In this document: positions 7,890 through 25,186 of the stretch, in pieces
Layout: the number at the start of each line of letters is the position of its first letter
How positions within the stretch are numbered: position 1 is the stretch's first letter
IMG/VR virus record: IMGVR_UViG_3300045988_006872
Coordinates: 1 to 42,017 of that record
Length of the DNA stretch: 42,017 nt
Origin: a virus
Strand: one strand, 5' to 3'
Notes under the pieces: generated by a model
The model's database searches: none
Seen by the model: the letters and a program-made list of their open reading frames with translations, nothing else
What the model was told of the DNA's origin: nothing
Position numbers and translations under genes: made by a program

Positions 7890-10172
7890 ATGGCGGATGG
7901 GAAAATCGTTGTGCAGGCGGAAGTTGATGCAAAAAAAGCACAACGGGAGCTTGACAAACTTACGGCAAGAATCGACAAGCTGGAAACCGACCTGAAAAAG
8001 AGCAGCGGAGAGCAAAGCGGGATCAAGGCGCAGCTTGACGCGGCAAAGGAATCCGCAAAACAGGCAGAAACTGCGTTGAAATCGTTGCGCGCTGAATCTG
8101 AACGGCTGCGGCAGGTCACATCCGGCGAGGTGTCTGCATCGCCTGATGCGTATATTTCTGCATACAGTCGGCAATCCGAAGTTGCTGCACAGATCAAGGA
8201 ACAGGAAGCGCTTCTGAAAGAGCAAGACAAGATCGTTGAGAGCTTGGACAGCAAGTACGCAAAAATTACGGACAAGGTAATGGAGCAGACCTCCGCGCTG
8301 GATGCGGCGAAGACACGCGCAGGAGAGCTGACGCGAGAGATCACAAACGCAAGCGGCGCGTCTGAACGAATGGAGCTTGCCGCAAAAAATGTTTCCGACA
8401 GCAGGAACACGTTCAGCAGGCGTGTTTCCGGGCTTTTTAAGCGTGTCCTTGTATTCTCTCTGATTACCAGAGCTCTGCAAAGCCTGCGGACATGGCTCGG
8501 AAAAACAATCATGCAGAACGATGCGGCGCGTGCAGCGGTTGCGCGGCTTAAGGCTGCGTTTTTGACGCTGGCCCAGCCGATTCTTCAAGTCGTGATCCCC
8601 GTTTTTGTGAAGCTTGTGAATATCCTCACGCAAGTTGTTACTGCGATTGCAAAGTTCTTCGGCATGCTGTCCGGTAAAAGTTGGGGCGCGCAAGTCGCAG
8701 CGGCCAAAGGGCTGAATGCGGAAAAAGAAGCAATCGAGGGGGTAGGCTCCGCAGCCGAAGACGCCAGCAAGAGCATGGCAAGCTTCGATGAGATCAACCA
8801 GATTACCAGCAATCAGGCATCTGGAGGCGGAGGCGGCGCAGGCGGGGCGGCGTCTACGGATATCGCGCCGGATTTCGCAAATCTCGACATGGCAGAGGAC
8901 AAGCTCCACGACATTCTCGGCTTGGTAGGAGCGATTGCAGCAGGGCTTCTGGCATGGAAAATTGCGAGCTTGTTCACGAACGACCTGAGCAAGATTTGGG
9001 GTATCGCCCTTGCTGTTGCCGGGGCGTTTGCGCTTGTATACTTCTGGCTGGATGCTTGGAATAACGGGATTGATTTACAAAACTTCCTCGGGATGCTGGC
9101 AGGGCTTGCCGCGCTTGCAGTTGGACTTGCAATCGCCTTCGGACCAATCGCAGCAGGAATTGCGCTCGTTGTAGGCGGTCTTGCCATGCTGGTTGTTGGT
9201 ATCAAGGACGTTATTGAAAATGGCTTCAATTTAGTAAATACGCTTACGATCATCGCAGGGCTGCTTGCCGCCGGTATCGGCATTTCGATTCTGACGGGTA
9301 GCTGGATCCCACTCCTGATTGCGGGATTTGTTGCCGCTCTGGTTGCACTTGTTTCCTTTACCGGACATGGCGAAGAACTAATCGAAGGCCTGAAAAATAT
9401 CATAGACGGATTCGGTAAATTTTTCAAGGGTGTGTTTACGGGTGACTTGAAGCTTGCCGCAGAAGGCGCGAAACAAATTTGGGAAGGGCTTAAGCAGACG
9501 TGGAATGCCATCATAAACTCCATCAAATATGCATGGGATATGTTCATTACATGGTTACAATCAAAAAGCCCCATGCTCGCGGCGATTTTCCAGACATACG
9601 GAAACTTTATATCCGGCCTATTCAACAGTATAAAGCAGTGGCTAAGCGGAATCATCGAGTTTATCAGCGGCGTTTTTACCGGAGACTGGGCAAAGGCGTG
9701 GGAAGGCGTAAAGGATATATTTAAGGGAATCTGGAATGGAATCATTACCGCTGTTGAATATGCGATAAACTTTATCATCAACGGTATAAACCTCCTAATC
9801 TCCGCGCTGAATACCATTCATTTCGAGGTTCCTGATTGGGTTCCTCTAATTGGCGGTAGTTCTTTCGGAATTAGCATTCCCCTAGTGAGCAACGTTGCGC
9901 TTCCTCGTCTCGCGCAGGGCGCAGTCATCCCCCCAAACCGCGAATTTCTCGCCGTTCTCGGCGACCAGAAGAGCGGGACGAATATTGAGACGCCGCTGGC
10001 AACGATGGTGCAGGCCTTTAAGCAGGCCATGAACGATACCGGAGGCATGGGCGGCAGGCAGATCACGGTTGTTATGCAGCTCGACCACAGAGAACTTGGC
10101 CGCGCGGTGTATAACCTTAACAACGAGGAAACACAGCGCGTCGGCGTGAAGCTTGCGGGGGTGAAGGCATGA
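7890..10172 (+). CDS. Tape measure protein
   Basis: 760 aa: N-terminal coiled coil, central block of Gly/Ala-rich TM-like helices, C-terminal 'LAVLGDQKSGTNIETP' motif. Canonical position. Confidence 0.9.
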   Translation: MADGKIVVQAEVDAKKAQRELDKLTARIDKLETDLKKSSGEQSGIKAQLDAAKESAKQAETALKSLRAESERLRQVTSGEVSASPDAYISAYSRQSEVAAQIKEQEALLKEQDKIVESLDSKYAKITDKVMEQTSALDAAKTRAGELTREITNASGASERMELAAKNVSDSRNTFSRRVSGLFKRVLVFSLITRALQSLRTWLGKTIMQNDAARAAVARLKAAFLTLAQPILQVVIPVFVKLVNILTQVVTAIAKFFGMLSGKSWGAQVAAAKGLNAEKEAIEGVGSAAEDASKSMASFDEINQITSNQASGGGGGAGGAASTDIAPDFANLDMAEDKLHDILGLVGAIAAGLLAWKIASLFTNDLSKIWGIALAVAGAFALVYFWLDAWNNGIDLQNFLGMLAGLAALAVGLAIAFGPIAAGIALVVGGLAMLVVGIKDVIENGFNLVNTLTIIAGLLAAGIGISILTGSWIPLLIAGFVAALVALVSFTGHGEELIEGLKNIIDGFGKFFKGVFTGDLKLAAEGAKQIWEGLKQTWNAIINSIKYAWDMFITWLQSKSPMLAAIFQTYGNFISGLFNSIKQWLSGIIEFISGVFTGDWAKAWEGVKDIFKGIWNGIITAVEYAINFIINGINLLISALNTIHFEVPDWVPLIGGSSFGISIPLVSNVALPRLAQGAVIPPNREFLAVLGDQKSGTNIETPLATMVQAFKQAMNDTGGMGGRQITVVMQLDHRELGRAVYNLNNEETQRVGVKLAGVKA

Positions 10173-15867: not shown

Positions 15868-16356
15868 ATGAGCACCATCATTGACATTCTGATCACCGAC
15901 CGGACACAGGCGGACGTGGAGCGCGTCAAGGCACTGGCCGGGAAGGGCTTTGCGGCTATGACGGCAGACGAACAGGCGGAATGGCTGGCCGGGATGAAGG
16001 GCGCATACAACGTGAGCGATTTGAACCGTGTTGGCACGGCTCTGAACTATTTGACTGGGCGTCTCGCGCCGCTCTGTGGGAAGGATATCCAGTGGCCAGC
16101 TAAGACGGATTGGGGCCTGACGGACGTTATAACGGCGTCACAGGCCGCTGTATACCGGCAGCAGATACAGGATGTGCGAAACGCGCTGACGTATCCACCC
16201 GGAACGCCTGCTGCGCCGGAGATCGACCGGCTGACGTACACTGGCGCAAACGATATTGAGCGCATTTTGTCGCTGTGCGAAACGCTGATCGATAACATCA
16301 TTAAGGCGTTTCGGTACACCGGCGCGGCGGAATGCGCCGCAGGAGGACTGATATGA
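15868..16356 (+). CDS. Hypothetical fibre-associated protein
   Basis: 162 aa. The 'ITDRTQADVERV...YNVSDLNRV' pattern recurs in Firmicutes phage fibre loci, as far as I remember. Confidence 0.55.
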   Translation: MSTIIDILITDRTQADVERVKALAGKGFAAMTADEQAEWLAGMKGAYNVSDLNRVGTALNYLTGRLAPLCGKDIQWPAKTDWGLTDVITASQAAVYRQQIQDVRNALTYPPGTPAAPEIDRLTYTGANDIERILSLCETLIDNIIKAFRYTGAAECAAGGLI

Positions 16357-17768
16357 AAGACAGACAACCGACACAGGTGCTGGCCAACGGCGCGATCCGA
16401 TACGGCATTTACGGCGTCGACGGAACGCTCGACCGCTACGAATACATGAAGCGCGAGGACGAGCCCACCATCGAAGGTACGCCGCTCAATAAGGCAAATC
16501 TTTTATCCGACGTGACGGAGAATAAGATCTGGAACAACAAGGAGAAACCGACTGATCCGACCGTCAACGATGCGCTGTACGAGTTATCTAAAGGCACGGC
16601 GCGTATTGGCGACATCTCCATGACTGCCCGCGGGGATCGCTCGGCTTCGTGGCTCCCCTGCGATGGACGAGCGATCTCAAACGTCACGTATCCGGATCTG
16701 TACAACGTCTTGCGGACGGACGTAGACGCGGGAGACTGGGACGAAATTGAAGTCACGGGCATGATTGGCACGCACCCGTCGATCTCGTACGCGAATGGGC
16801 ATTGGTTTATCGTAGCGAAAAGCGGGAACAACTACTCGTTGAAAGTCGCGACATCAGACAATCTTGAAACATTCACGGTTGCGAACATCAGCAACGTTGG
16901 AACAACACAAAAAACGGTGGTCGGATGCAGCAAAGTGCGCTACTACGATGGCAAATATGTATTTGCCTATTACACAACAAGCGGATCGCACAGGGTTTGC
17001 GTTATCTATGCAACGTCCCCGAACGGGCCGTGGACGGTTGCTGCAAATGAGTCCCTGAGCTCTCCGGAAAGCTACATAAATTGGGAGCCCGGAGAAGTGC
17101 TGATCTATGGCGGAATCTACTATGTTATGCATCCGAGATACGCAAAGGTACAGCAGCAGAGGTACATATGGGCATCCGATTTAGGCGGGAACTGGGACTA
17201 CGGATCAATAACGCAGGAGTACGTCGGTTCGTTCGTGCAAGATGCAGAATATGGGCCTATTTATGCCAGCAAAAATGCTGGTGGCATGCAGAAGTTTATG
17301 GGCCTCGGCAGCACGCCGACTGCACTTCCGGCCCATTTTGGATACCCGGGCCCCGGCCTTGCGGTAAGCGGGAGCAAAATCGTTGTTGTAGAGGGAAACC
17401 AAATATCCTATTCGCTCGACGGCGGACAAACAATCGCCGGGACAACGGCGCTTGGTGGTACATATACCGACTCCGTCCGAAACATGGCGGTTTACAATGG
17501 CGACCTTCTTGCCGTTGCGCTTGAAAACTCCAATGGGCACTATATTGCCGTAATGAGTGCGCTGGATGCTGCGCCCGTGATTGCTTCGACCACATACAAT
17601 GTTGCTGGGCTTGCGATCGGTGGGAACGTGGTTGCCGGTATCGTCGACACATCCTCAGATGAGCAAATTAAAATCCTGAGAAGGGATTTTTCCTACTCCG
17701 CAAAACGTATCCCCAACATCACCCCCGATGGCCGCAGTTATGCTTACATCAAAGCGCTGGAGGAATAA
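16353..17768 (+). CDS. Tail fibre / receptor-binding protein with tail-collar-like motif and beta-rich C-terminal domain
   Basis: AGGAGG RBS. 'IGDISMTARGDRSASWLPCDGRAISNVTYPDLYNVL' fits the phage tail collar pattern. The C-terminal ~330 aa are beta-propeller-like in composition. Confidence 0.65.
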   Translation: MKDRQPTQVLANGAIRYGIYGVDGTLDRYEYMKREDEPTIEGTPLNKANLLSDVTENKIWNNKEKPTDPTVNDALYELSKGTARIGDISMTARGDRSASWLPCDGRAISNVTYPDLYNVLRTDVDAGDWDEIEVTGMIGTHPSISYANGHWFIVAKSGNNYSLKVATSDNLETFTVANISNVGTTQKTVVGCSKVRYYDGKYVFAYYTTSGSHRVCVIYATSPNGPWTVAANESLSSPESYINWEPGEVLIYGGIYYVMHPRYAKVQQQRYIWASDLGGNWDYGSITQEYVGSFVQDAEYGPIYASKNAGGMQKFMGLGSTPTALPAHFGYPGPGLAVSGSKIVVVEGNQISYSLDGGQTIAGTTALGGTYTDSVRNMAVYNGDLLAVALENSNGHYIAVMSALDAAPVIASTTYNVAGLAIGGNVVAGIVDTSSDEQIKILRRDFSYSAKRIPNITPDGRSYAYIKALEE

Positions 17769-17771
17769 GCC

Positions 17772-18200
17772 ATGCAGGACAGACACGGCACGAATGATCT
17801 TGCAAACGGCGCTGTGCGGTACGGCGTGTACGATGCGGACGGGAGCCTGCTGCGGTACGAGTGGATCCGGCCAGAGGATGAGCCGCTGGAAGCCGGTACG
17901 CCGCTGCTCAAAGCAAACCTTCTGACGGACGCCACCGCCGCAAAGGTCTGGCCTGCGGGCAACGCGCCCGCTGACCCGAAGATCGACGAAGCACTCGCCA
18001 AGCTTACCACGCCGCGCGCCCGCCCCGGCGACGTCGTAACGACTGCCCGATATCTCGATGAGACATGGCACGTCTGCGACGGATCGACGTTTTCCCAGAC
18101 TGATTACCCGGCGCTGTACGCCGTTCTCGGTAGCACGACGCTGCCGGATATCAGCTATTCAAGCGACACCACGACATACATCAAAATGGTGGACGATTAG
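17772..18200 (+). CDS. Short paralogue of the preceding fibre (N-terminal anchor + collar motif only)
   Basis: 142 aa. The N-terminus aligns with 16353-17768 ('LANGAVRYGVYDADGSLLRYEWIRPEDEPLEAGTPLLKANLL'). Collar motif 'WHVCDGSTFSQTDYPALYAVLG'. Confidence 0.6.
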   Translation: MQDRHGTNDLANGAVRYGVYDADGSLLRYEWIRPEDEPLEAGTPLLKANLLTDATAAKVWPAGNAPADPKIDEALAKLTTPRARPGDVVTTARYLDETWHVCDGSTFSQTDYPALYAVLGSTTLPDISYSSDTTTYIKMVDD

Positions 18201-18828: not shown

Positions 18829-19056
18829 ATGGAAAACATCAAGAAGCGGCTTGGCAATCTGCTGAGCGTCAAATCCCTCGTCACGCTCGGCCTGACCATT
18901 ATCTTCGCCGTCCTCGCCCTGCGCGGCGATATCACCGGAAAGGACTTTCTAACGATCTTCCTGACGGTCATCACGTTCTATTTCGGCACGCAGAGCCAGA
19001 AAGCGCAGGACGCCATCGATGCGGCAGGCAAACCGCAGGAGGACGCGCAGAAATGA
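18829..19056 (+). CDS. Holin (two TM helices)
   Basis: 75 aa. TMs 'LVTLGLTIIFAVLAL' and 'FLTIFLTVITFYFG', charged C-terminus, ATGA overlap with the endolysin. Confidence 0.6.
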   Translation: MENIKKRLGNLLSVKSLVTLGLTIIFAVLALRGDITGKDFLTIFLTVITFYFGTQSQKAQDAIDAAGKPQEDAQK

Positions 19057-19751
19057 GCATCATGAAAGCCTCCGAGCTCGTCAGGCGGCACATCGACGTC
19101 GCGAAGAATTACAAGACCGTTTATATGTGGGGCTGCTTTGGCTCGCCGGTCACGGATGGGATCATCGCAGAGAAGGCCAAACAATACCCGGACTGGTACG
19201 ACGCCGCAAAACAGGCCAGATTCCGCGGGCTGATCGGGAAGGGCTACTTTGGCTTTGACTGCGTGAATCTCACAAAGGGGATCCTGTGGGGATGGAACGG
19301 CAACAAAAACGCCTACCACGGCGGCGCCCGATACGCCGGAAACGCCGTCCCGGACGTCTCTGCCGACGGCATGATCGCCAAATGCAAGGACGTATCCGCA
19401 TCCGGCTGGGACAAGCTCGTCCCGGGCGAAGGCCTGTGGATGCCCGGCCACTGGGGGCTGTACATCGGAGACGGCTTGGCCGTTGAGTGTACGCCCATCT
19501 GGGATAATGGCGTGCAGATCACCGGCGTCGGCAACATCGGCGTCAAGGGCGGCTACAACAGCCGTGTATGGCAGAAGCACGGCAGGCTCCCGTGGGTGGA
19601 CTACGACACGGAAACCGTTGACAAGGCCGTCGAGGACGCTAAGAAGACCATCAAGGCAAAGGCCGGACTTGCGGACAACACGATCAAATATCTCGCCGAC
19701 TACAAGTACGGCGATGATCTCCTAAAAAAACTGGCTGCGGCTATGAAGTAA
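19053..19751 (+). CDS. Endolysin, NlpC/P60-like cysteine peptidase
   Basis: 232 aa. Candidate catalytic Cys in 'GFDCVNLTKGILWG' and His in 'GHWGLYIGDG'. Follows the holin. Confidence 0.7.
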   Translation: MSIMKASELVRRHIDVAKNYKTVYMWGCFGSPVTDGIIAEKAKQYPDWYDAAKQARFRGLIGKGYFGFDCVNLTKGILWGWNGNKNAYHGGARYAGNAVPDVSADGMIAKCKDVSASGWDKLVPGEGLWMPGHWGLYIGDGLAVECTPIWDNGVQITGVGNIGVKGGYNSRVWQKHGRLPWVDYDTETVDKAVEDAKKTIKAKAGLADNTIKYLADYKYGDDLLKKLAAAMK

Positions 19752-19763
19752 GGAGGCGGCGCG

Positions 19764-20012
19764 ATGGCACCGCATGCACGAGTTAATCTGCCGCCGGAGC
19801 TTGGCAGGCTGACGCGGAAGGACATGGAGGCTGTGATCTATCAGGCCAATCTTGGACGCGAGAACTCGCAGATCGCGCAGCTTTACTTCGTAGACAAGCT
19901 CCCGCAAGTGGACGTTGCGACAGAATTGTATCTTGGCCGCGCCACCGTGCAGCGCCGCCTGCCGGAGATCATGGCGCGGATGAAGGCTGCGTCCGGCAGT
20001 CTTCCAAACTGA
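19764..20012 (+). CDS. Sigma-70 region-4-like HTH protein (82 aa, region 4 only)
   Basis: GGAGG RBS. 'IAQLYFVDKLPQVDVATELYLGRATVQRRLPEIMARM' resembles sigma region 4 / ArpU-RinA-type HTH. Confidence 0.6.
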   Translation: MAPHARVNLPPELGRLTRKDMEAVIYQANLGRENSQIAQLYFVDKLPQVDVATELYLGRATVQRRLPEIMARMKAASGSLPN

Positions 20013-20098
20013 GCGGAAATGATGCACAAGTGATACGAAGCTGAGGCACATCAAAACGCAAAAAAGCCCATACTGGACACATCAAAGGAGTGTTCGGT

Positions 20099-20485
20099 AT
20101 GGGCTTTTCTTATTTCAATCCAAATCCCGCCGGGCGGCAGGTCGGGGACTGCACTGTTCGAGCAATCGCAAAGGCGACGGGGAAAAGCTGGGATGAAATA
20201 TATATCGGGCTGTGCTTGCAAGGTCTGATCTTGGGCGATCTTCCGAGTGCAAACAGTGTATGGGGTGCATACCTCCGGCAGCATGGTTTTACCCGGAACG
20301 TGATACCGGACACCTGCCCGGATTGCTACACGGTCGACAGGTTTGCCGATGAGCACCCGCGCGGGACGTATATTCTCGCCCTCTCTGGGCATGTAGTGTG
20401 CGTGCAGGATGGGACGATCTATGACAGCTGGAATAGCGAGGACGAAATCCCGCTTTATTACTGGGTAAAAGAAACGGAGGAATGA
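20099..20485 (+). CDS. Standalone papain-like (C39-like) Cys-His protein, function unknown
   Basis: AAAGGAG sits 8 nt upstream of ATG 20099. 'RQVGDCTVRAIAKATGKSW' supplies Gln and Cys; 'SGHVVCVQDGTIYDSW' supplies His and Asp. Confidence 0.5.
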   Translation: MGFSYFNPNPAGRQVGDCTVRAIAKATGKSWDEIYIGLCLQGLILGDLPSANSVWGAYLRQHGFTRNVIPDTCPDCYTVDRFADEHPRGTYILALSGHVVCVQDGTIYDSWNSEDEIPLYYWVKETEE

Positions 20486-20487
20486 AC

Positions 20488-21138
20488 ATGGCATATCCCT
20501 ATTTCAATCCCTATTATCAGCAGCCGATGCCGGATAACCTCATGCAGATGCGGCAGATGCAGCAGCCACAGATGCAGCCCATGCAGCAGCCTATGTCGCA
20601 GCCAGTGCAACAGAACCCCATCGCGCAGAGCGGCGTGCAGTGGGTAAGCGGCGAGCAGGAGGCAAGGGGTTATCTCATCGCGCCAAACTCCGCTGTGGCG
20701 CTGTGGGATTCTACCGCGCCGACTGTGTATCTCAAGCAGGCGGATGCAAGTGGAAAGCCGACGCTCAAGATTTATGACCTCGTAGAACGCACAGAAACGG
20801 CCCCTAACGCGCCACAAAAGCCGGGCGTGGAATTTGTCACCCGCGAGGAGTTCGACCGTCTAGCGGCGCTTGTGGGCGAAATAAAGGGTAAAAAGAAGCG
20901 CAAGGTAGAGAGGAGGACGAGGACGATGACTAATCCGTTCATGGCCGCGCTGGGCGGCGGGCAGATGCCGATGGGCAATTTTGCACAGATGGTGCAGCAG
21001 TTCAACCAGTTCAAAGCAAATTTCAAAGGCGACCCCAAAGCCGAGGTCGAAAAGCTCTTGCAGAGTGGTAGGCTAAACCAGCAGCAGCTCAATCAGCTAC
21101 AGCAGATGGCGAAGCAGTTTCAAAGCCTGATGCAGTAA
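20488..21138 (+). CDS. Q/P/M-rich protein with central beta-rich domain and C-terminal Q-rich helix (unknown function)
   Basis: GGAGG sits 7 nt upstream of ATG 20488. N-terminal 'QMRQMQQPQMQPMQQPMSQPVQQ', basic linker 'KGKKKRKVERRTRT', C-terminal 'QQQLNQLQQMAKQFQSLMQ'. Confidence 0.6.
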   Translation: MAYPYFNPYYQQPMPDNLMQMRQMQQPQMQPMQQPMSQPVQQNPIAQSGVQWVSGEQEARGYLIAPNSAVALWDSTAPTVYLKQADASGKPTLKIYDLVERTETAPNAPQKPGVEFVTREEFDRLAALVGEIKGKKKRKVERRTRTMTNPFMAALGGGQMPMGNFAQMVQQFNQFKANFKGDPKAEVEKLLQSGRLNQQQLNQLQQMAKQFQSLMQ

Positions 21139-21204
21139 TCATCAACATAAATCAACATCGTGGCCACGATTTGATGAATAAAAATTTTTCAAAGGAGTGA
21201 TACT

Positions 21205-21981
21205 ATGTCTCTTTCTGACGGCGGCGTTCAGGCCACTATGCCTGTTGCGCCAACCGGCATGATGAACAGCGGCTTTGGCGGCTTCGGTGGCGATGGCGCG
21301 TGGTGGATCATCATTCTTTTCCTGTTTGTTTTCTGCGGCTGGGGAAACAACGGCTGGGGAAACAACGGCAACAGCGGTGCTGCTGACAATTACGTCCTTG
21401 CAAGCGATTTTGCCACTCTTCAGCGCCAGATCGACAGCGCAGCATCGACGATCGAACGTAAAAGCGACATTACGCAGCAGGGCATCTGCGATGGCTTCTA
21501 CTCCATGAACACTACGCTGCTGAACGGCTTTGCGGGCGTCAATCAGAACATGAACAGCGGTTTCCAGAATGCCGAGCTTTCCCGCTGCAACCAGCAGGCA
21601 GCTCTCATGCAGCAGCTCAACGCCATGCAGATGCAGGCCGCAGATTGCTGCTGCGAAAACCGTGCAGCTATCGCCCAGGTGCGCTACGACATGGCGACGC
21701 AGGCGTGCGACACGCGCAACACCGTGCAGAACGCCACGCGCGACATCATTGACGCGAACAACCAGAACAGCCGCGCCATCCTCGACTTCCTGACGCAAAG
21801 CAAGCTGTCCGACCTCCAGACCGAGAATCAGAATCTGAAGCTGGCGGCATCTCAGGCCGCGCAGAACAACTATCTGATCTCGCAGCTGCGTCCGTGCCCT
21901 TCGCCTGCCTACATTACTTGTAACCCGTGGGCAGGCAGCGGTTACGGCGGCTGTGGCTGCAATCAGGGTTGTGGCTGCTGA
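21205..21981 (+). CDS. Membrane protein: YjcZ-like Gly-rich TM N-terminus, N/Q-rich helical body, Cys-cluster C-terminus (unknown function)
   Basis: AAAGGAG RBS. 'GFGGFGGDGAWWIIILFLFVFCGWGNNGWGNNG'; 13 Cys including 'CCC' and the terminal 'GGCGCNQGCGC'. Followed by a terminator. Confidence 0.65.
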   Translation: MSLSDGGVQATMPVAPTGMMNSGFGGFGGDGAWWIIILFLFVFCGWGNNGWGNNGNSGAADNYVLASDFATLQRQIDSAASTIERKSDITQQGICDGFYSMNTTLLNGFAGVNQNMNSGFQNAELSRCNQQAALMQQLNAMQMQAADCCCENRAAIAQVRYDMATQACDTRNTVQNATRDIIDANNQNSRAILDFLTQSKLSDLQTENQNLKLAASQAAQNNYLISQLRPCPSPAYITCNPWAGSGYGGCGCNQGCGC

Positions 21982-22050
21982 CAACTGCATAGCATAGCTT
22001 TTTCGTGACCTCACGAAAATGGTCGGCCCCGTGCCGATACTAACAACAAC

Positions 22051-22084
22051 GCGGCGGGGCAATAGCCCTGCCGCTGTATTTTTA
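22051..22084 (+). terminator. Rho-independent terminator
   Basis: 10-bp GC-rich stem gcggcggggc/gccctgccgc (one G-U pair), loop AATA, then TGTATTTTTA. Confidence 0.7.
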
Positions 22085-22100
22085 TGAAAGGAATGATTTT

Positions 22101-22523
22101 ATGGCTGAATTTACATCATCCGGGATTCAAACTGTCACCGCTGGGCAGAACGTCCCTCTGATCTCCACGGCGGCTTGTGGAAAGCCGTGCATCGTACATC
22201 GCGAAGGAAGCGGGCTTGTTACGCTGCGTGGTCTGACGCAGCAATGCAAGGCGAAGTTCCGCGTATCCTTTGGTGCTAATATCGCCGTCCCTACAGGCGG
22301 AACAGTAGGTGCCATTACCGCTGCGCTTGCAATCAACGGCGAACCTCTGAGCAGCGCCACAGCGACCGTAACCCCTGCGGCTGTTGAGAACTATTTCAAC
22401 ATCTTCGTTTCCGCATTCGTGGAAGTCCCGCGCGGCTGCTGCCTGACAGTAGCGGCGAAGAACACCAGCGTGCAGGCGGTAAGTTTCGCAAATAGCAATA
22501 TGATCGTCGAGCGCGTATCGTGA
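22101..22523 (+). CDS. BclA C-terminal-domain / C1q-TNF-like jelly-roll protein (putative), Cys-rich
   Basis: 140 aa. The pattern 'ANIAVPTGGTVGAITAALAINGEPLSSATATVTP...NTSVQAVSFANSNMIVERV' resembles exosporium BclA-CTD-type domains. 5 Cys. Confidence 0.45.
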   Translation: MAEFTSSGIQTVTAGQNVPLISTAACGKPCIVHREGSGLVTLRGLTQQCKAKFRVSFGANIAVPTGGTVGAITAALAINGEPLSSATATVTPAAVENYFNIFVSAFVEVPRGCCLTVAAKNTSVQAVSFANSNMIVERVS

Positions 22524-22537
22524 AAGGAGAATGCAAT

Positions 22538-22909
22538 ATGTACGATTTGAGAAACCTGCGTGAAATGCTCTGCAAAGAGCTTGACGAAATCGCCGACAAG
22601 CGCGAAATGTCTGCGGGCGATCTGGACGCGATCCAGAAGCTGACGAGCTCCATCAAAAACGCCTATAAGATTGAAATGCTTGAGGACGGCGGATACTCCC
22701 GCGACGGCGAATGGGAATCGGATATGCGCGGCACATATGGACGCGGAAGTTCATACCGTGGGCGCCGCCGCGACGCAATGGGCCGCTACAGCCGCACCGA
22801 CGCCCGCGAGCACATGCATGCGCAGCTGGAGGATATGATGCGCGACGCGGACGACGATAAAACCCGCGAAGCGATCCGCCGCTGCATGGAGCAGATCGAG
22901 CGGGCATAA
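22538..22909 (+). CDS. Small helical protein with R/G/Y/S-rich central segment (unknown function)
   Basis: AAAGGAG RBS. 'GGYSRDGEWESDMRGTYGRGSSYRGRRRDAMGRYSR' is flanked by helices. Confidence 0.6.
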   Translation: MYDLRNLREMLCKELDEIADKREMSAGDLDAIQKLTSSIKNAYKIEMLEDGGYSRDGEWESDMRGTYGRGSSYRGRRRDAMGRYSRTDAREHMHAQLEDMMRDADDDKTREAIRRCMEQIERA

Positions 22910-22918
22910 GGAGGAACT

Positions 22919-23251
22919 ATGCTGGATGAACGTGAAATCCGAAAGGAGATAGCCAGACTGGAATACGAAGAATCCAGCTATCGGAACTATGCGAAGCTTG
23001 CCGACCTCTATGCCATCCGCAGGGAGATGCATGGCGGCAGTGAGATTGTGGGTGCTTACTCTGCTGCTGCACCTCCTGAACCATCCGAACGGTACACCGT
23101 TGGCGAATATGGGGATAGTGATTTTTTGCTTGCCGTATCAGGCAAGGATCCTACTAGGGTATGGCCGATCATCGACGAGCTTATGGATACGCTGTCGATG
23201 GTGAACAAGCGCGTGTATGATTCTGTTATGCGAAAGATCGACATGATCTAA
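22919..23251 (+). CDS. Small hypothetical protein (110 aa)
   Basis: AAGGAGG RBS; last gene before attP. Confidence 0.6.
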   Translation: MLDEREIRKEIARLEYEESSYRNYAKLADLYAIRREMHGGSEIVGAYSAAAPPEPSERYTVGEYGDSDFLLAVSGKDPTRVWPIIDELMDTLSMVNKRVYDSVMRKIDMI

Positions 23252-23312: not shown

Positions 23313-23376
23313 TCCCCTGCTAAGGGAGTAGGCGTCTAAAAAGCGCGCGAGAGTTCAAATCTCTCCTTCCGCGCCA
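23313..23376 (+). tRNA. Partial tRNA-Ser(GCU) copy (anticodon arm to CCA), the attP core; not a functional gene
   Basis: Anticodon loop ctGCTaa, long variable arm, T arm gagag-ttcaaat-ctctc, acceptor 3' strand cttccgc + g + cca. The required 5' acceptor strand GCGGAAG is absent; the sequence there is gcgctgt. Confidence 0.7.
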
Positions 23377-23423
23377 AAGTACCGCATTTGACCTGATTTT
23401 AAGTCAAATGCGGTACTTTTTTT
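23377..23423 (+). terminator. Rho-independent terminator right after the tRNA fragment
   Basis: 16-bp perfect stem aagtaccgcatttgac/gtcaaatgcggtactt, 10-nt loop, T7 run. Confidence 0.8.
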
Positions 23424-23532: not shown

Positions 23533-24642
23533 TCAGCCTTTCTCGATTTTGTTAATCGCGGCAACCATGCCCTCTGTGTTCGGGTGAACATACCTCTGCG
23601 TTGTTGTGATTTTCGCGTGGCGCATGATCTCCTTGATTGTAAACGGATCGATGTTCTTCATTGCAAGCGCGGTCGCGGTCGTGTGCCGACAGGCGTACGG
23701 CGGGAGGCGCTTCACTCCAGCCTGCTCCAAGCATTCGTAATATCTTGCATAAAAGTTGTCTTCGTTCATGCAGCATATCTTACCGACCTTCGATTTGCTT
23801 TCATCGCAGAGCTGCTGGAAAACAGGAGCGACAAAATCAGGAAACACCATAGGCGTTTCCTTCCGTTTTTTTGTCTTGAGGCCGCTATTTACGATCTCAT
23901 TTTTGTCAAAGTCGATCATACTCTTATCCAGCTTTCGGAGCTCTCCCGGCATCATGCCCGTGTATATCATTGCGAGGATAAACCCAGCAAAATTGTTTTT
24001 CGGGTACACTTTCCAGATCTTTTTTACGTCGTCCTCCGAGAACGGCTCTGGCGATTTTTCCTCCAGCTTCGGAAGTTTGACGAATTTTGAAAGATTGACT
24101 GTTGTCTGCTTTTCAGCGATGGCAAGATTGAAGCAGTGTGACAGGACTGTTTTCATGTCTCTGCGTGTATAGTAAGTGCTGGCTTTCCGGTCGACCACAT
24201 CCTGAATCTGGCCGATCGTCAGTGCGTCAATCTCACAGTCCGCAATTTCTTCCAGACGTTCAAATGCTTTGTCTGCTGCGCCCTGCCGGTCGTGGGAGAG
24301 GGACAAATAATCGCCCTTTAAGTATGTTTTATAATATTCTCGCAAGGTAGGGCTCCGTTTTTCTTTCTGCGGCGGGTTCGCAGCGTATTGAAGTGCGGCC
24401 CGTTTTGTTGCGAAGCCGCCCTTTGTCTTCGTTTTCTGATGCAGTTTGTCGTTCTCATCGAGATATATTCCGACAGTCCACCGCGCCGTCCAGGTCTTGC
24501 CGCGTTGATAAGCGCTACCTTGCCCGTTCCCGCGAGACTTTGCGCGCGGCTTCTCTGTCTGTTTCTTTCCGCACCAGCAACAGTAGGGCGCGCCGTCTGG
24601 AATCCCTTTTTTACACTTGATGCACTCCATGTTTCCCTCCAC
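23533..24642 (-). CDS. int: Tyrosine integrase with N-terminal zinc-ribbon
   Basis: 369 aa. C-terminal 'ACRHTTATALAMKNI...IMRHAKITTTQRYVH' carries the R-H-R-Y catalytic pattern. N-terminal 'CIKCKKGIPDGAPYCCWCGKKQ'. Adjacent to attP. Confidence 0.95.
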   Translation of the reverse strand: MEGNMECIKCKKGIPDGAPYCCWCGKKQTEKPRAKSRGNGQGSAYQRGKTWTARWTVGIYLDENDKLHQKTKTKGGFATKRAALQYAANPPQKEKRSPTLREYYKTYLKGDYLSLSHDRQGAADKAFERLEEIADCEIDALTIGQIQDVVDRKASTYYTRRDMKTVLSHCFNLAIAEKQTTVNLSKFVKLPKLEEKSPEPFSEDDVKKIWKVYPKNNFAGFILAMIYTGMMPGELRKLDKSMIDFDKNEIVNSGLKTKKRKETPMVFPDFVAPVFQQLCDESKSKVGKICCMNEDNFYARYYECLEQAGVKRLPPYACRHTTATALAMKNIDPFTIKEIMRHAKITTTQRYVHPNTEGMVAAINKIEKG

Positions 24643-25186
24643 GTTCTTTTCGGATCGCGTAGAAAGTAATTGCCGAAGCCAGCGCTGAACCTACGATCAG
24701 GGCAATGCAAACCCATGCAGCTACGGACAAATCTCCATCGCGAATGAGGCCTGCGTTCCGACTCTGTGCATCCGTTACAAGGCAGGCAATCAGAGAAAAA
24801 GAGAGCAGCATACAAAACAGGGCGAGGACGTAACACATTGTATGTGTAGACTTTATCTGTGCGCTTTGCGCGGCCGCTGTTGCCTCCAGCTTGGCGTTTT
24901 CAAGCTCGACATGATGGATCTGCTTGGTCAGCTTTTCCGGGCTCCCGACGGGATTTTCAAGGCCGAACAGCTCGTCGAGCGACAGGCCAAGCGCTTTACA
25001 TATTGCGGCCGAGTTATAAAGCCGTGGATCCGCTTGTGTTCCAGCATATAATCGGCTCACGGTGGAGAAGGAAACTCCGGACTTTTCCGACAGCTCCTCC
25101 AGCGTCATTCCGCTATGATCTTTCGCATTTCTGATTTTCCCATGATACGCGCCGATAAACGGCGCGAGTTCCTGTATTGCGGACAT
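24611..25186 (-). CDS. Membrane-anchored XRE-family HTH protein
   Basis: 191 aa with GGAGG RBS. HTH 'MTLEELSEKSGVSFSTVSRLYAG', coiled coil, then two TM helices 'MCYVLALFCMLLSFSLIACLV' and 'AAWVCIALIVGSALASAITFYAI'. Overlaps the int start by 32 nt. Confidence 0.75.
   Translation of the reverse strand: MSAIQELAPFIGAYHGKIRNAKDHSGMTLEELSEKSGVSFSTVSRLYAGTQADPRLYNSAAICKALGLSLDELFGLENPVGSPEKLTKQIHHVELENAKLEATAAAQSAQIKSTHTMCYVLALFCMLLSFSLIACLVTDAQSRNAGLIRDGDLSVAAWVCIALIVGSALASAITFYAIRKERGGKHGVHQV

Follow-up and report, generated by a model that had tools for sequence, protein, structure and literature searches.

A co-inherited gene cassette exchanged between unrelated phages fills the stretch from endolysin to attachment site in a temperate siphovirus

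The seven open reading frames (ORFs) between the endolysin gene and the attachment site of the IMG/VR virus record IMGVR_UViG_3300045988_006872, here called o1 to o7, belong to a unit that is co-inherited, is exchanged between otherwise unrelated phages and is retained in an apparently virulent phage. The stretch of DNA analysed, called the window below, covers positions 1 to 42,017 of that record and is a complete temperate siphovirus genome (42 kb). The order conserved among the carriers is (helix-turn-helix gene)-o2-o3N-o3C-o4-terminator-o5-o6-o7, with o3N and o3C fused into the single ORF o3 in the window. Our preferred reading, tentative as a whole, is that the block is a copy of an abundant mobile phage accessory cassette that builds a membrane-anchored assembly of o4 and o5 for the phage's benefit. 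The parts of this reading differ in strength. A mobile cassette with a phage function, rather than spore or host cargo, is probable; a membrane-anchored o4/o5 assembly is about an even call; and it is rather unlikely that the assembly performs specifically a lysis-associated membrane step.

The linkage was followed in 124 loci collected through o5 from viral and genome collections, reaching 45-55% o5 identity and including bins of Oscillospiraceae, Acutalibacteraceae, Lachnospiraceae and Christensenella. Counting only loci with enough flanking sequence, o4 was present with o5 in 120/121 loci (99%), o3N in 112/120, o3C in 112/121, o2 in 106/115 (~92%), o6 in 111/121 (~92%), o7 in 81/105 (77%) and o1 in 56/113 (50%). 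The gene order was identical throughout the sampled loci. Co-occurrence as a unit across prophages, which the original prediction, made from the sequence alone, had named as a check, was found within the Clostridia-phage clade. The hosts of the window clade are Oscillospiraceae and other Clostridia; here and below, hosts of metagenomic records are given as written in those records.

The block is also carried by the Butyrivibrio virus Ceridwen, where it is complete, in the same order and placed after a glucosaminidase lysin. By hmmsearch, o2-o7 are matched there with E-values from 7e-18 to 1e-52, together with a weak o1-like match (E=1e-3). Butyrivibrio, the host genus, is non-sporulating. All Ceridwen genes lie on one strand and no integrase is encoded. 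The phage was isolated as a lytic phage and is probably virulent according to its authors (PMC7372960). When the window was compared with the complete Ceridwen genome and with 29 kb of Dulem virus 33, protein similarity was essentially confined to 19.7-23.3 kb of the window. The carriers range from siphoviruses to crAss-like phages; their heads, tails and replication modules are unrelated, as are their integrases (19% identity), and the lysins flanking the block come in four kinds (that of the window, PGRP, glucosaminidase and amidase). The block is more conserved than the heads, tails, lysins and integrases of its carriers.

Lysis genes precede the block in the window, Dulem virus 33, Ceridwen, Vescimonas and the crAss-like phage cr115_1. 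It lies among replication and recombination genes or beside the terminase in locus L131, Dulem virus 39, the Clostridium perfringens phage CPD1 and the Bacteroides phage C3_41T2LP. The sole match in a plasmid collection was a prophage on the 861-kb secondary replicon of the cultured Vescimonas fastidiosa MM35, a human-gut member of the Oscillospiraceae (pMM35_01, 247528-258217), with o4 and o5 identities of 81-83%. There the cassette comes after a holin and an N-acetylmuramoyl-L-alanine amidase and adjoins host lactate permease and lactate dehydrogenase genes. All its genes are called "hypothetical" by NCBI, and the PLSDB table is empty over the 950 bp between the lysin and o3N, the expected place of o1 and o2.

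The seven co-oriented plus-strand ORFs of the original prediction were all confirmed, coordinates included (Table 1), and the ribosome-binding sites are good, with a Shine-Dalgarno sequence 5-10 nucleotides (nt) upstream of each ORF. Five of the seven proteins match PHROG families (E-values 1e-9 to 2e-57), and homologs of all seven genes were found among more than 100 other loci; these are genuine genes rather than chance ORFs. Judged by its relatives, the block is really an eight-gene cassette, since o3 corresponds to two genes in nearly all of them. The statement that no family is matched holds for Pfam and NCBIfam, where none of the seven proteins scored above cut-off, and for the PADLOC defence models, none of which was matched at E<=0.01. 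It does not hold for PHROGs, which exist for the five proteins mentioned but are themselves of unassigned function. Searches of PDB sequences with o2, o4 and o5 as single sequences, and with o2, o3N, o4, o5, o6 and o7 as profiles, gave no relatives, apart from weak coiled-coil and fusion-subunit matches of o4 (see below). No functional study of any cassette family was found in the literature searched.

The compositional description first given was exact: 13 Cys in o4, 5 Cys in o5 and a hydrophobic segment in o4. Asn and Gln make up ~20% of both o3 and o4. The o4 segment (residues 31-45) is the only one of membrane grade in the block; the other six products have neither signal peptide nor membrane segment, and a signal peptide or lipobox is absent from all seven. 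On the minus strand, ORFs of 110, 147 and 306 amino acids (aa) at 19722-22062 overlap o1, o2 and o4 in antisense. They give spurious matches in related phages because the sense-strand DNA is conserved, and a length-greedy gene caller would mis-annotate the region.

The most widely distributed cassette member is o4 (phrog_16490, E=2e-45). After the Gly-flanked hydrophobic segment (maximum hydropathy 2.36) it has an N/Q-rich helical body, CCC at residues 148-150, the motif RPCPSPAY and a Cys/Gly/Tyr-rich tail. The family is defined by the Gly-flanked hydrophobic segment, the nearly invariant CCC, ASQQAQ, RPxPxPAY and the Cys/Gly/Tyr-rich end, and these motifs hold in the Clostridia, crAss-like, Bacteroides and archaeal-virus homologs. 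Full-length homologs were found in several lineages of crAss-like phages (3.5e-42), in C. perfringens phages (5e-30), in a cultured Bacteroides uniformis phage and in viruses recorded with a Methanomassiliicoccales host. The C. perfringens phages carry the o4 homolog together with o3N-like and o7-like genes. The family comprises at least 8000 clusters at 90% identity, and the exact o4 protein of the window occurs on 404 contigs. In the phage collection, only phages infecting strict anaerobes of the gut or rumen are matched by o4 and o5 (those of Clostridia and Bacteroidota, and methanogen-assigned viruses), with no match in the heavily sampled phages of Bacillus, Staphylococcus, Streptococcus, Lactococcus and Listeria. 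The many conserved cysteines coincide with the anaerobic lifestyle of the carriers.

In the crAss-like cr115_1, a holin and a LysB-like gene are followed, two genes downstream, by an o4 homolog annotated "spike protein/glycoprotein", and virion structural genes follow the block. Annotator labels on crAss homologs include "spike" and "viral fiber". The cr115_1 homolog (L137:3207-4127) and its neighbours contain in-frame stop codons, consistent with stop-codon recoding, which is known for some crAss-like phages. The gene before it encodes a DUF7841 protein (E=2e-42) with an RGG/Tyr-rich tail that recalls o6.

A profile of o4 gave only weak matches to PDB sequences: influenza C HEF2 (E=0.0056), the heptad repeat 1 (HR1) of coronavirus S2 (E=0.12) and HA2 (E ~1-10). 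In the HEF2 match, the hydrophobic segment of o4 was aligned to the fusion peptide. The likeness to fusion subunits is treated here as a resemblance and not as homology. For o4 as a YjcZ-like Gly-rich transmembrane protein, as first proposed, the Gly-flanked hydrophobic segment stands but the family does not: no Pfam or NCBIfam model was matched, those of ExsY/CotY and YjcZ included, and the likeness is compositional only.

For o5 (phrog_20016, E=2e-57), a model computed with AlphaFold2 (AF2) from a 67-sequence alignment is all-beta, with a predicted local distance difference test score (pLDDT) of 89 and a predicted template modelling score (pTM) of 0.83. Its best Foldseek matches are exosporium proteins, namely the C-terminal domain (CTD) of F-BclA (9h38, E=8e-7, template modelling (TM) score 0.78), BclA (1wck, TM 0.76), ExsFA (7r1m, TM 0.76) and BxpB (8d02), over a range of E-values from 8e-7 to 1e-5, TM 0.73-0.78 and identities of 10-14%. 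EDA/TNF ligands, C1q domains and some phage fibre tips come next. From this model we confidently assign a TNF/C1q-like jelly-roll, and the BclA-CTD/C1q-like candidate of the original prediction was well chosen; the protein is presumably a trimer. An Ena/DUF3992-like pilus subunit was also considered, and was set aside as the fold matches the TNF/C1q type and no Ena entry is among the top matches.

At the sequence level, o5 has no Pfam or NCBIfam match to BclA or ExsFA (BxpB) at E<=1, and phmmer and profile hmmsearch against PDB sequences gave nothing relevant. In a viral structure library its nearest neighbours are standalone, uncharacterised gut-phage proteins of ~140 aa. An exhaustive profile search returned ~900 clusters at 50% identity, essentially all of them standalone proteins of 100-196 aa, and no collagen stalk, exosporium-targeting N-terminus or fibre fusion is present in o5 or in 150 representative homologs. 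Like o4, the family has at least 8000 clusters at 90% identity. Across very different phages o5 remains at least 52% identical, and its Cys113-Cys114 pair is invariant.

The protein o2 (phrog_3754, E=3e-33) has Cys21, His101 and Asp112 (numbered from the GTG at 20090) invariant in 21 and in 61 homologs. In its AF2 model (pLDDT 91), Cys21 lies at the N-terminus of helix 21-30, His101 opens strand 101-106 and Asp112 is in strand 109-112. This geometry suggests a minimal papain-like putative peptidase or acyl-transferase; for such a fold, transglutaminase or acyl-transferase chemistry would be equally possible. Foldseek gave no significant match (best E=0.098, probability 0.84, TM 0.52), the top matches all being of clan CA (Josephin-2, AvrPphB, TssM and USP5). 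A papain/C39-like protein had been proposed here: the papain-like Cys-His geometry is borne out, but o2 is not detectably C39. The family is also found alone in Tsamsa/Kirov-like phages of Bacillus ("putative peptidase"), in Geobacillus phage GBK2 and in Lak megaphages.

The remaining proteins are helical or of low complexity. In o3N, a Y/P/Q/M-rich low-complexity N-terminus is followed by a beta domain of ~50 aa and a C-terminal helix; its alignment holds 25 homologs, Ceridwen and CPD1 among them. The Met/Gln-rich helical protein o3C (~70 aa) is always immediately 5' of o4, is called as a gene of its own (66-70 aa) in loci L004-L009, and the order o3N-o3C-o4 is kept in all lineages. Its composition alone would suggest an STI1/SGTA-like holdase, a role that was not retained as no model supports it. 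In nearly all relatives o3N and o3C are separate and translationally coupled, with the stop/start overlap GATGAxTAA. Comparing positions 20900-20930 of the window with L004:9664-9774 and L058:8868-8978, we traced the fusion to a 2-nt insertion near 20906 relative to L004, which shifts the last ~8 codons of o3N into the o3C frame; the ATG of o3C (20926) and the GGAGGA-like sequence before it are intact. Either natural variation, giving a true fusion, or a mistake in the assembly could account for the insertion. In o6 (phrog_28802, E=1e-9; 23 homologs aligned) helical ends flank a Tyr/Ser/Arg/Gly-rich low-complexity centre, with no Pfam or NCBIfam match to CotG-like coat families, the likeness being compositional only. 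Finally, o7 is helical, has no PHROG match and has homologs in Ceridwen (6e-27) and CPD1 (4e-8).

Several loci carry additional genes within or next to the cassette, and selfish-looking insertions break it up repeatedly. At the o3C/o4 junction, an "endonuclease" gene lies on the minus strand in Dulem virus 33 (L001:6947-7498) and an HNH-like gene of 207 aa in CPD1 (L136:4047-4670), so that the junction looks, from these insertions, like a homing-endonuclease hot spot. A 1.7-kb insert separates o1 from o2 in MT835551 (L002:6240-7923). In distant lineages, a small HExxH protein often replaces or follows o7 (L124:11100-11420, L127:11012-11401, L122:6731-7081 and L138:6506-6970). It is weakly Peptidase_M78/SprT-like and is labelled "PolyVal metallopeptidase" in C3_41T2LP; it may be an ImmA-like component of lysogeny control rather than a cassette member. 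When ten o4 neighbours in distant cassettes were scanned with Pfam, only DUF7841 (crAss gp42) and the weak M78/SprT-like matches to the HExxH protein appeared.

The variable companion of the cassette, o1, starts 12 nt past the endolysin stop codon with a GGAGG ribosome-binding site, and no terminator lies between the two genes. It resembles Sigma70_r4 (PF04545, E=0.004, 17.0 bits with a Pfam cut-off of 24.1), TIGR02937 (E=6e-4, 19.5 bits with a cut-off of 42.9) and the PHROG annotation "transcriptional regulator/sigma factor" (E ~2e-3). The sigma region-4 helix-turn-helix first read from its sequence is supported as a weak resemblance, with scores below the family cut-offs, and o1 may be regarded as a candidate regulator.

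Two RNA structures punctuate the block, both already noted in the original prediction and both real. The hairpin over the start of o2 is kept with compensatory changes in L002, L042 and L079 and is absent from most other lineages; it would terminate transcription between o1 and o2 or occlude translation there. An Rfam scan gave a single sub-threshold small-RNA match, STnc320 on this hairpin (E=0.049, below the gathering score), which was taken as chance. Nearly all related loci keep the o4-o5 terminator, its stem being altered by compensatory changes or replaced by a wholly different one in L096, L097 and L105. Because it is kept in this manner, it must be a selected feature that separates o2-o4 from o5-o7. 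Of the repeats reported at 21141-21175, an 8-nt direct repeat and the 14-nt palindrome exist but fall below the threshold of the repeat finder; the palindrome is a possible operator. Promoters for the proposed sub-operons would be putative, as promoter-like sites are not enriched: a sigma-70 promoter scan gave 6 sites with 4.8 expected.

Our preferred reading combines these elements as follows. The protein o4 would insert in the cytoplasmic membrane through its Gly-flanked hydrophobic segment and would form an elongated, probably trimeric N/Q-rich helical stalk ending in the Cys/Gly/Tyr-rich tail, which the o5 trimer would cap or cross-link through its conserved Cys pair. The outcome would be a split "membrane anchor + stalk + TNF-like head", comparable to BclA fibres and to type II TNF ligands (EDA). 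As for the other members, o3C, o3N, o6 and o7 would be chaperones or adaptors, o2 would process or cross-link some component, and o1 with the two RNA hairpins would set the expression ratio, o2-o4 above o5-o7. The target would most likely be the cell membrane, because no other structure is shared by the Clostridia, Bacteroidota and archaeal hosts of the o4 viruses and because the carriers share no heads, tails, lysins or replication genes. The act we favour would be membrane remodelling late in infection, spanin- or class-I-fusion-like, at or after holin triggering.

Several points weigh against this reading. The stalk or trimer of o4 and its contact with o5 are inferred, and the flanks of the o4 hydrophobic segment carry no clear positive-inside signal. 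The fusion-protein matches of o4 are outscored by a spurious coiled-coil match to CSM1 (E=0.002), and composition and coiled-coil character may be all that they reflect. The position after o4 is taken in CPD1 and cr115_1 by Cys-containing beta-proteins unlike o5. These were tried as remote o5 homologs and rejected (hhalign probability <1%, BLASTP E=8.6), so o5 is not a universal partner of o4. The co-occurrence sample was drawn via o5 and is enriched in close relatives. Ceridwen carries an XRE gene and an antirepressor, and temperate ancestry or cryptic lysogeny is possible for it. Moreover, the blocks of L131, Dulem virus 39, CPD1 and C3_41T2LP sit away from the lysis genes, and monoderm hosts have no outer membrane, which leaves a spanin-like step with no obvious substrate. 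For these last two reasons, the lysis-associated step is rated low.

Among the alternatives, superinfection exclusion or membrane immunity, in which o4 (with o5-o7) would sit in the membrane of an infected or lysogenic cell and block DNA entry or adsorption of other phages in the manner of Sie or Imm, is unlikely. It would account for the N-terminal membrane segment of o4 with its large remaining body, and for a block that lies at the prophage end between terminators, a common setting of exclusion genes and morons. Exclusion is useful to virulent and temperate phages alike, phage T4 Imm and Sp being the precedent in a virulent phage, and the presence of the block in a virulent phage is compatible with it. 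However, known Sie systems are single, small, fast-evolving proteins, whereas here seven to eight genes are tightly conserved (o5 at least 52%); such conservation across carriers with unrelated tails speaks against a system tuned to one particular incoming phage; all but one of the seven products are cytoplasmic; and PADLOC gave no match. We rate as distinctly unlikely a membrane-tethered organiser of replication or assembly, comparable to phi29 p16.7/p1, in which o4 would anchor a nucleoprotein or condensate-like assembly of the low-complexity RGG/Tyr-rich proteins o3N and o6 and the basic o3N tail. It is favoured by the setting of the block in CPD1, C3_41T2LP, Dulem virus 39 and L131, where recombination and replication genes surround it, by the conserved prion-like Q/P/Y-rich and Y/S/R/G-rich segments and by the RGG-rich tail of the o4 neighbour in cr115_1. 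The replication modules of the carriers are unrelated, however, a DNA-binding domain was detected in none of the proteins but o1, and the TNF-like o5 and the Cys-rich tail of o4 would be left without a role. A virion-associated function, with o5 as a decoration or fibre tip and o4 as a membrane-active ejection or pilot protein kept soluble by o3C as a Met-rich chaperone, is quite improbable. TNF/C1q-like domains cap many phage fibres (the phi812 spike, cyanophage fibres, BFVD tail fibres), the block runs in the same direction as the late operon and comes after it, structural genes follow it in cr115_1, and the crAss labels mentioned above point the same way. A docked component should nevertheless co-vary with its docking partner, and the heads and tails of the carriers are unrelated; in addition, o5 lacks any attachment domain and never occurs as a fibre fusion, the conserved terminator precedes it, and the block belongs to the early region in several phages.

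The two hypotheses of the original prediction fare worse. In its first form, a conversion of the spore or envelope, o5 would be BclA/ExsF-like, o4 an ExsY/YjcZ-like matrix, o6 CotG-like, and o2 would act as the processing protease. In structure, o5 does come closest to the exosporium proteins F-BclA, BclA, ExsFA and BxpB, the Cys-rich, Gly/Tyr-rich and Tyr/Ser/Arg-rich compositions recall coat proteins, the block lies at the attR end, and products free of signal peptides would fit mother-cell assembly. This reading is largely refuted by distribution and is very improbable: the whole block occurs in a lytic phage of the non-sporulating Butyrivibrio fibrisolvens, it lies in the early region or beside the terminase elsewhere, and o4 is found in phages of Bacteroidota and in archaea-assigned viruses, likewise non-sporulating. 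There is no sequence membership in the BclA_C, ExsF, CotY/ExsY, YjcZ or CotG families, neither a collagen stalk nor an exosporium-targeting N-terminus in the 150 o5 representatives, the composition is native to the phage, and a TNF-like fold is frequent in the tips of phage fibres as well. The related view of the region as a lysogenic-conversion slot is right about an att-adjacent prophage end with a mobile accessory cassette, but the cassette is not confined to temperate phages, going by the apparently virulent Ceridwen, and its GC content, overall and at third codon positions (GC3), equals that of the rest of the phage. The second hypothesis, in which o4 would be a processed, secreted or membrane-inserted effector or bacteriocin rich in Cys and o2 the C39-like peptidase that matures it, is scarcely credible. 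The Gly-Gly motifs before the o4 hydrophobic segment, the Cys-rich o4 C-terminus and the papain-like geometry of o2 agree with it. The defining ABC exporter is lacking, however, with no transporter in the window block or in related loci and no immunity gene; besides not being detectably C39, the o2 family is found in the Bacillus, Geobacillus and Lak phages without o4, while crAss-like and C. perfringens phages have o4 but no o2. Finally, a helical protein of 258 aa is unlike known leader-processed bacteriocins.

The block fills the whole stretch from the endolysin stop codon to the attachment site. The attP claim was confirmed: the att core lies at the right prophage boundary, and similarity to the integrated prophages of loci L008 and L009 stops at 23379, with host sequence beyond, so the block is the last phage DNA before attR. 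In L008 and L009, as in V. fastidiosa, the att core comes after o7 and host genes come next. A tRNA scan found no complete tRNA in the window. In the metagenomic contig of locus L006 (12274-19300), a second small integrative element stands in tandem between the attR side of the prophage and a host Na+/H+ antiporter gene; it carries a different integrase of 400 aa, a helix-turn-helix protein, DUF6291, a sigma-r4-like protein and a Fic protein, and may be a satellite or another element on the same att site. The window phage also encodes three small membrane proteins. Its XRE-type repressor has two strongly hydrophobic C-terminal segments, containing MCYVLALFCMLLSFSLIACLV and AAWVCIALIVGSALASAITFYAI, which suggest a membrane-anchored CI-like repressor. 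The mapped features are listed in Table 1.

Table 1. Features of the cassette and of the surrounding phage genome in the window (+, plus strand; -, minus strand;., no strand)
Feature	Position	Strand	Remarks
Tape measure	7890-10172		
Tail fibres	16332-18200		
Endolysin	19053-19751		
o1	19764-20012	+	82 aa
RNA hairpin	20062-20108	+	Over Shine-Dalgarno and start codon of o2, then T-rich stretch; 19-nt arms, 89% complementary, -31 kcal/mol
o2	20090-20485 as listed (GTG 20090); likely 20099-20485	+	ATG 20099, 128 aa, start as in relatives
o3	20482-21138	+	218 aa, fused ORF
o3N part of fused o3	20482-20925	+	phrog_21718, E=1e-32; gene of ~147 aa in relatives
o3C part of fused o3	20926-21138	+	phrog_22984, E=6e-19
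Palindrome ATCGTGGCCACGAT	21157-21170	.	14 nt, perfect; in 66-nt gap 5' of o4; read from sequence
o4	21205-21981	+	258 aa
Intrinsic terminator/attenuator between o4 and o5	22051-22084 (stem 22051-22074 + T-run)	+	10-bp stem, 9 G-C pairs
o5	22101-22523	+	140 aa
o6	22520-22909 as listed; likely 22538-22909	+	ATG 22538
o7	22919-23251	+	110 aa, last phage gene before attR
att core	23313-23376	+	tRNA 3' fragment with CCA end; right prophage boundary, outside cassette
Hairpin	23376-23419		17-nt perfect hairpin + T-run, 3' of att core
Tyrosine integrase	23533-24642	-	
XRE-type repressor	24611-25186	-	Adjoins integrase; HTH_3 N-terminus, phrog_3

As a system the cassette appears to be new, because no described system of this composition was found and membership in the nearest systems fails on defining features that were tested; the fold of o5 is of a known kind and that of o2 probably so. 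With at least 8000 clusters each for o4 and o5, and the window's own o4 on 404 contigs, the cassette is among the commoner functional dark matter of human and animal gut viromes. Being highly conserved and exchanged between unrelated phages, it must serve phages of strict anaerobes generally. A functional answer would annotate thousands of genomes and could reveal a new phage-host membrane step, and two cultured systems, Ceridwen and the V. fastidiosa MM35 prophage, make the question testable. A bolder and unlikely extension is that o4 is the core of an unrecognised membrane-remodelling class, a fusion- or spanin-like anchored coiled coil with a TNF-like trimer as its cap in the Clostridia-phage clade. 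If true, viruses of monoderm bacteria, diderm bacteria and archaea in anaerobic guts would share a membrane step in release or spread, be it final membrane rupture, vesiculation or fusion, and a near-universal component of lysis or egress would have been missed by holin-endolysin-spanin schemes.

Compared with known systems, o2 shares with the clan CA enzymes (Josephin, AvrPphB/C58 and C39) the Cys at a helix N-terminus, the His opening a strand and an Asp 11 residues on. With 128 aa it is much smaller, however, has no significant sequence or structure match and lacks the ABC-transporter context of the C39 type. Morons, such as the toxin and immune-evasion genes of Streptococcus and Staphylococcus prophages, occupy the same slot between lysin and attR, are mobile and are bounded or subdivided by terminators. 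Unlike these one or two genes, the cassette has seven to eight co-conserved genes, shows no compositional deviation, is found in an apparently virulent phage and at other positions, and is conserved far above the flanking phage genes.

What recalls spanins and class-I fusion subunits (HA2/HEF2, S2) in o4 is a Gly-rich hydrophobic stretch near the N-terminus, followed by an extended helical part rich in N/Q/A/L, with conserved Cys; the block also stands beside holin or endolysin genes in five lineages. An outer-membrane lipoprotein partner is missing from the block, the host clade of the window is monoderm, and spanins have nothing equivalent to the CCC, RPxPxPAY or Cys/Gly/Tyr tail of o4; in some carriers the block lies away from the lysis genes. 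In EDA-A1 and other type II TNF ligands, an anchor, a trimeric stalk and a TNF-homology head are combined, an arrangement that would be matched if o4 and o5 act together. The o4/o5 design is, however, split over two polypeptides, o5 has no signal sequence and the likeness is one of fold and layout only.

In the exosporium (BclA/F-BclA, ExsFA/BxpB, ExsY/CotY; F-ENA anchoring complex 9h3d), BclA undergoes proteolytic processing and is joined to BxpB inside a Cys-rich lattice of ExsY. The identity of o5 to its proteins is only 10-14%, with no collagen repeats and no exosporium-targeting N-terminus, and o4 is unrelated to ExsY/CotY. Furthermore, the block is phage-encoded, also in the lytic phage of a non-sporulating host, and o4 occurs in Bacteroidota phages and archaea-assigned viruses. 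On the other side, o5 shares the jelly-roll fold (TM 0.73-0.78), is like ExsFA/BxpB a standalone protein of ~140 aa, and likewise comes with a partner rich in Cys (o4) and a putative enzyme for processing (o2). The BclA-ExsFA/BxpB-ExsY system of the exosporium is the closest analogue in parts and composition, and spanins, class-I fusion subunits and type II TNF ligands are the closest in layout.

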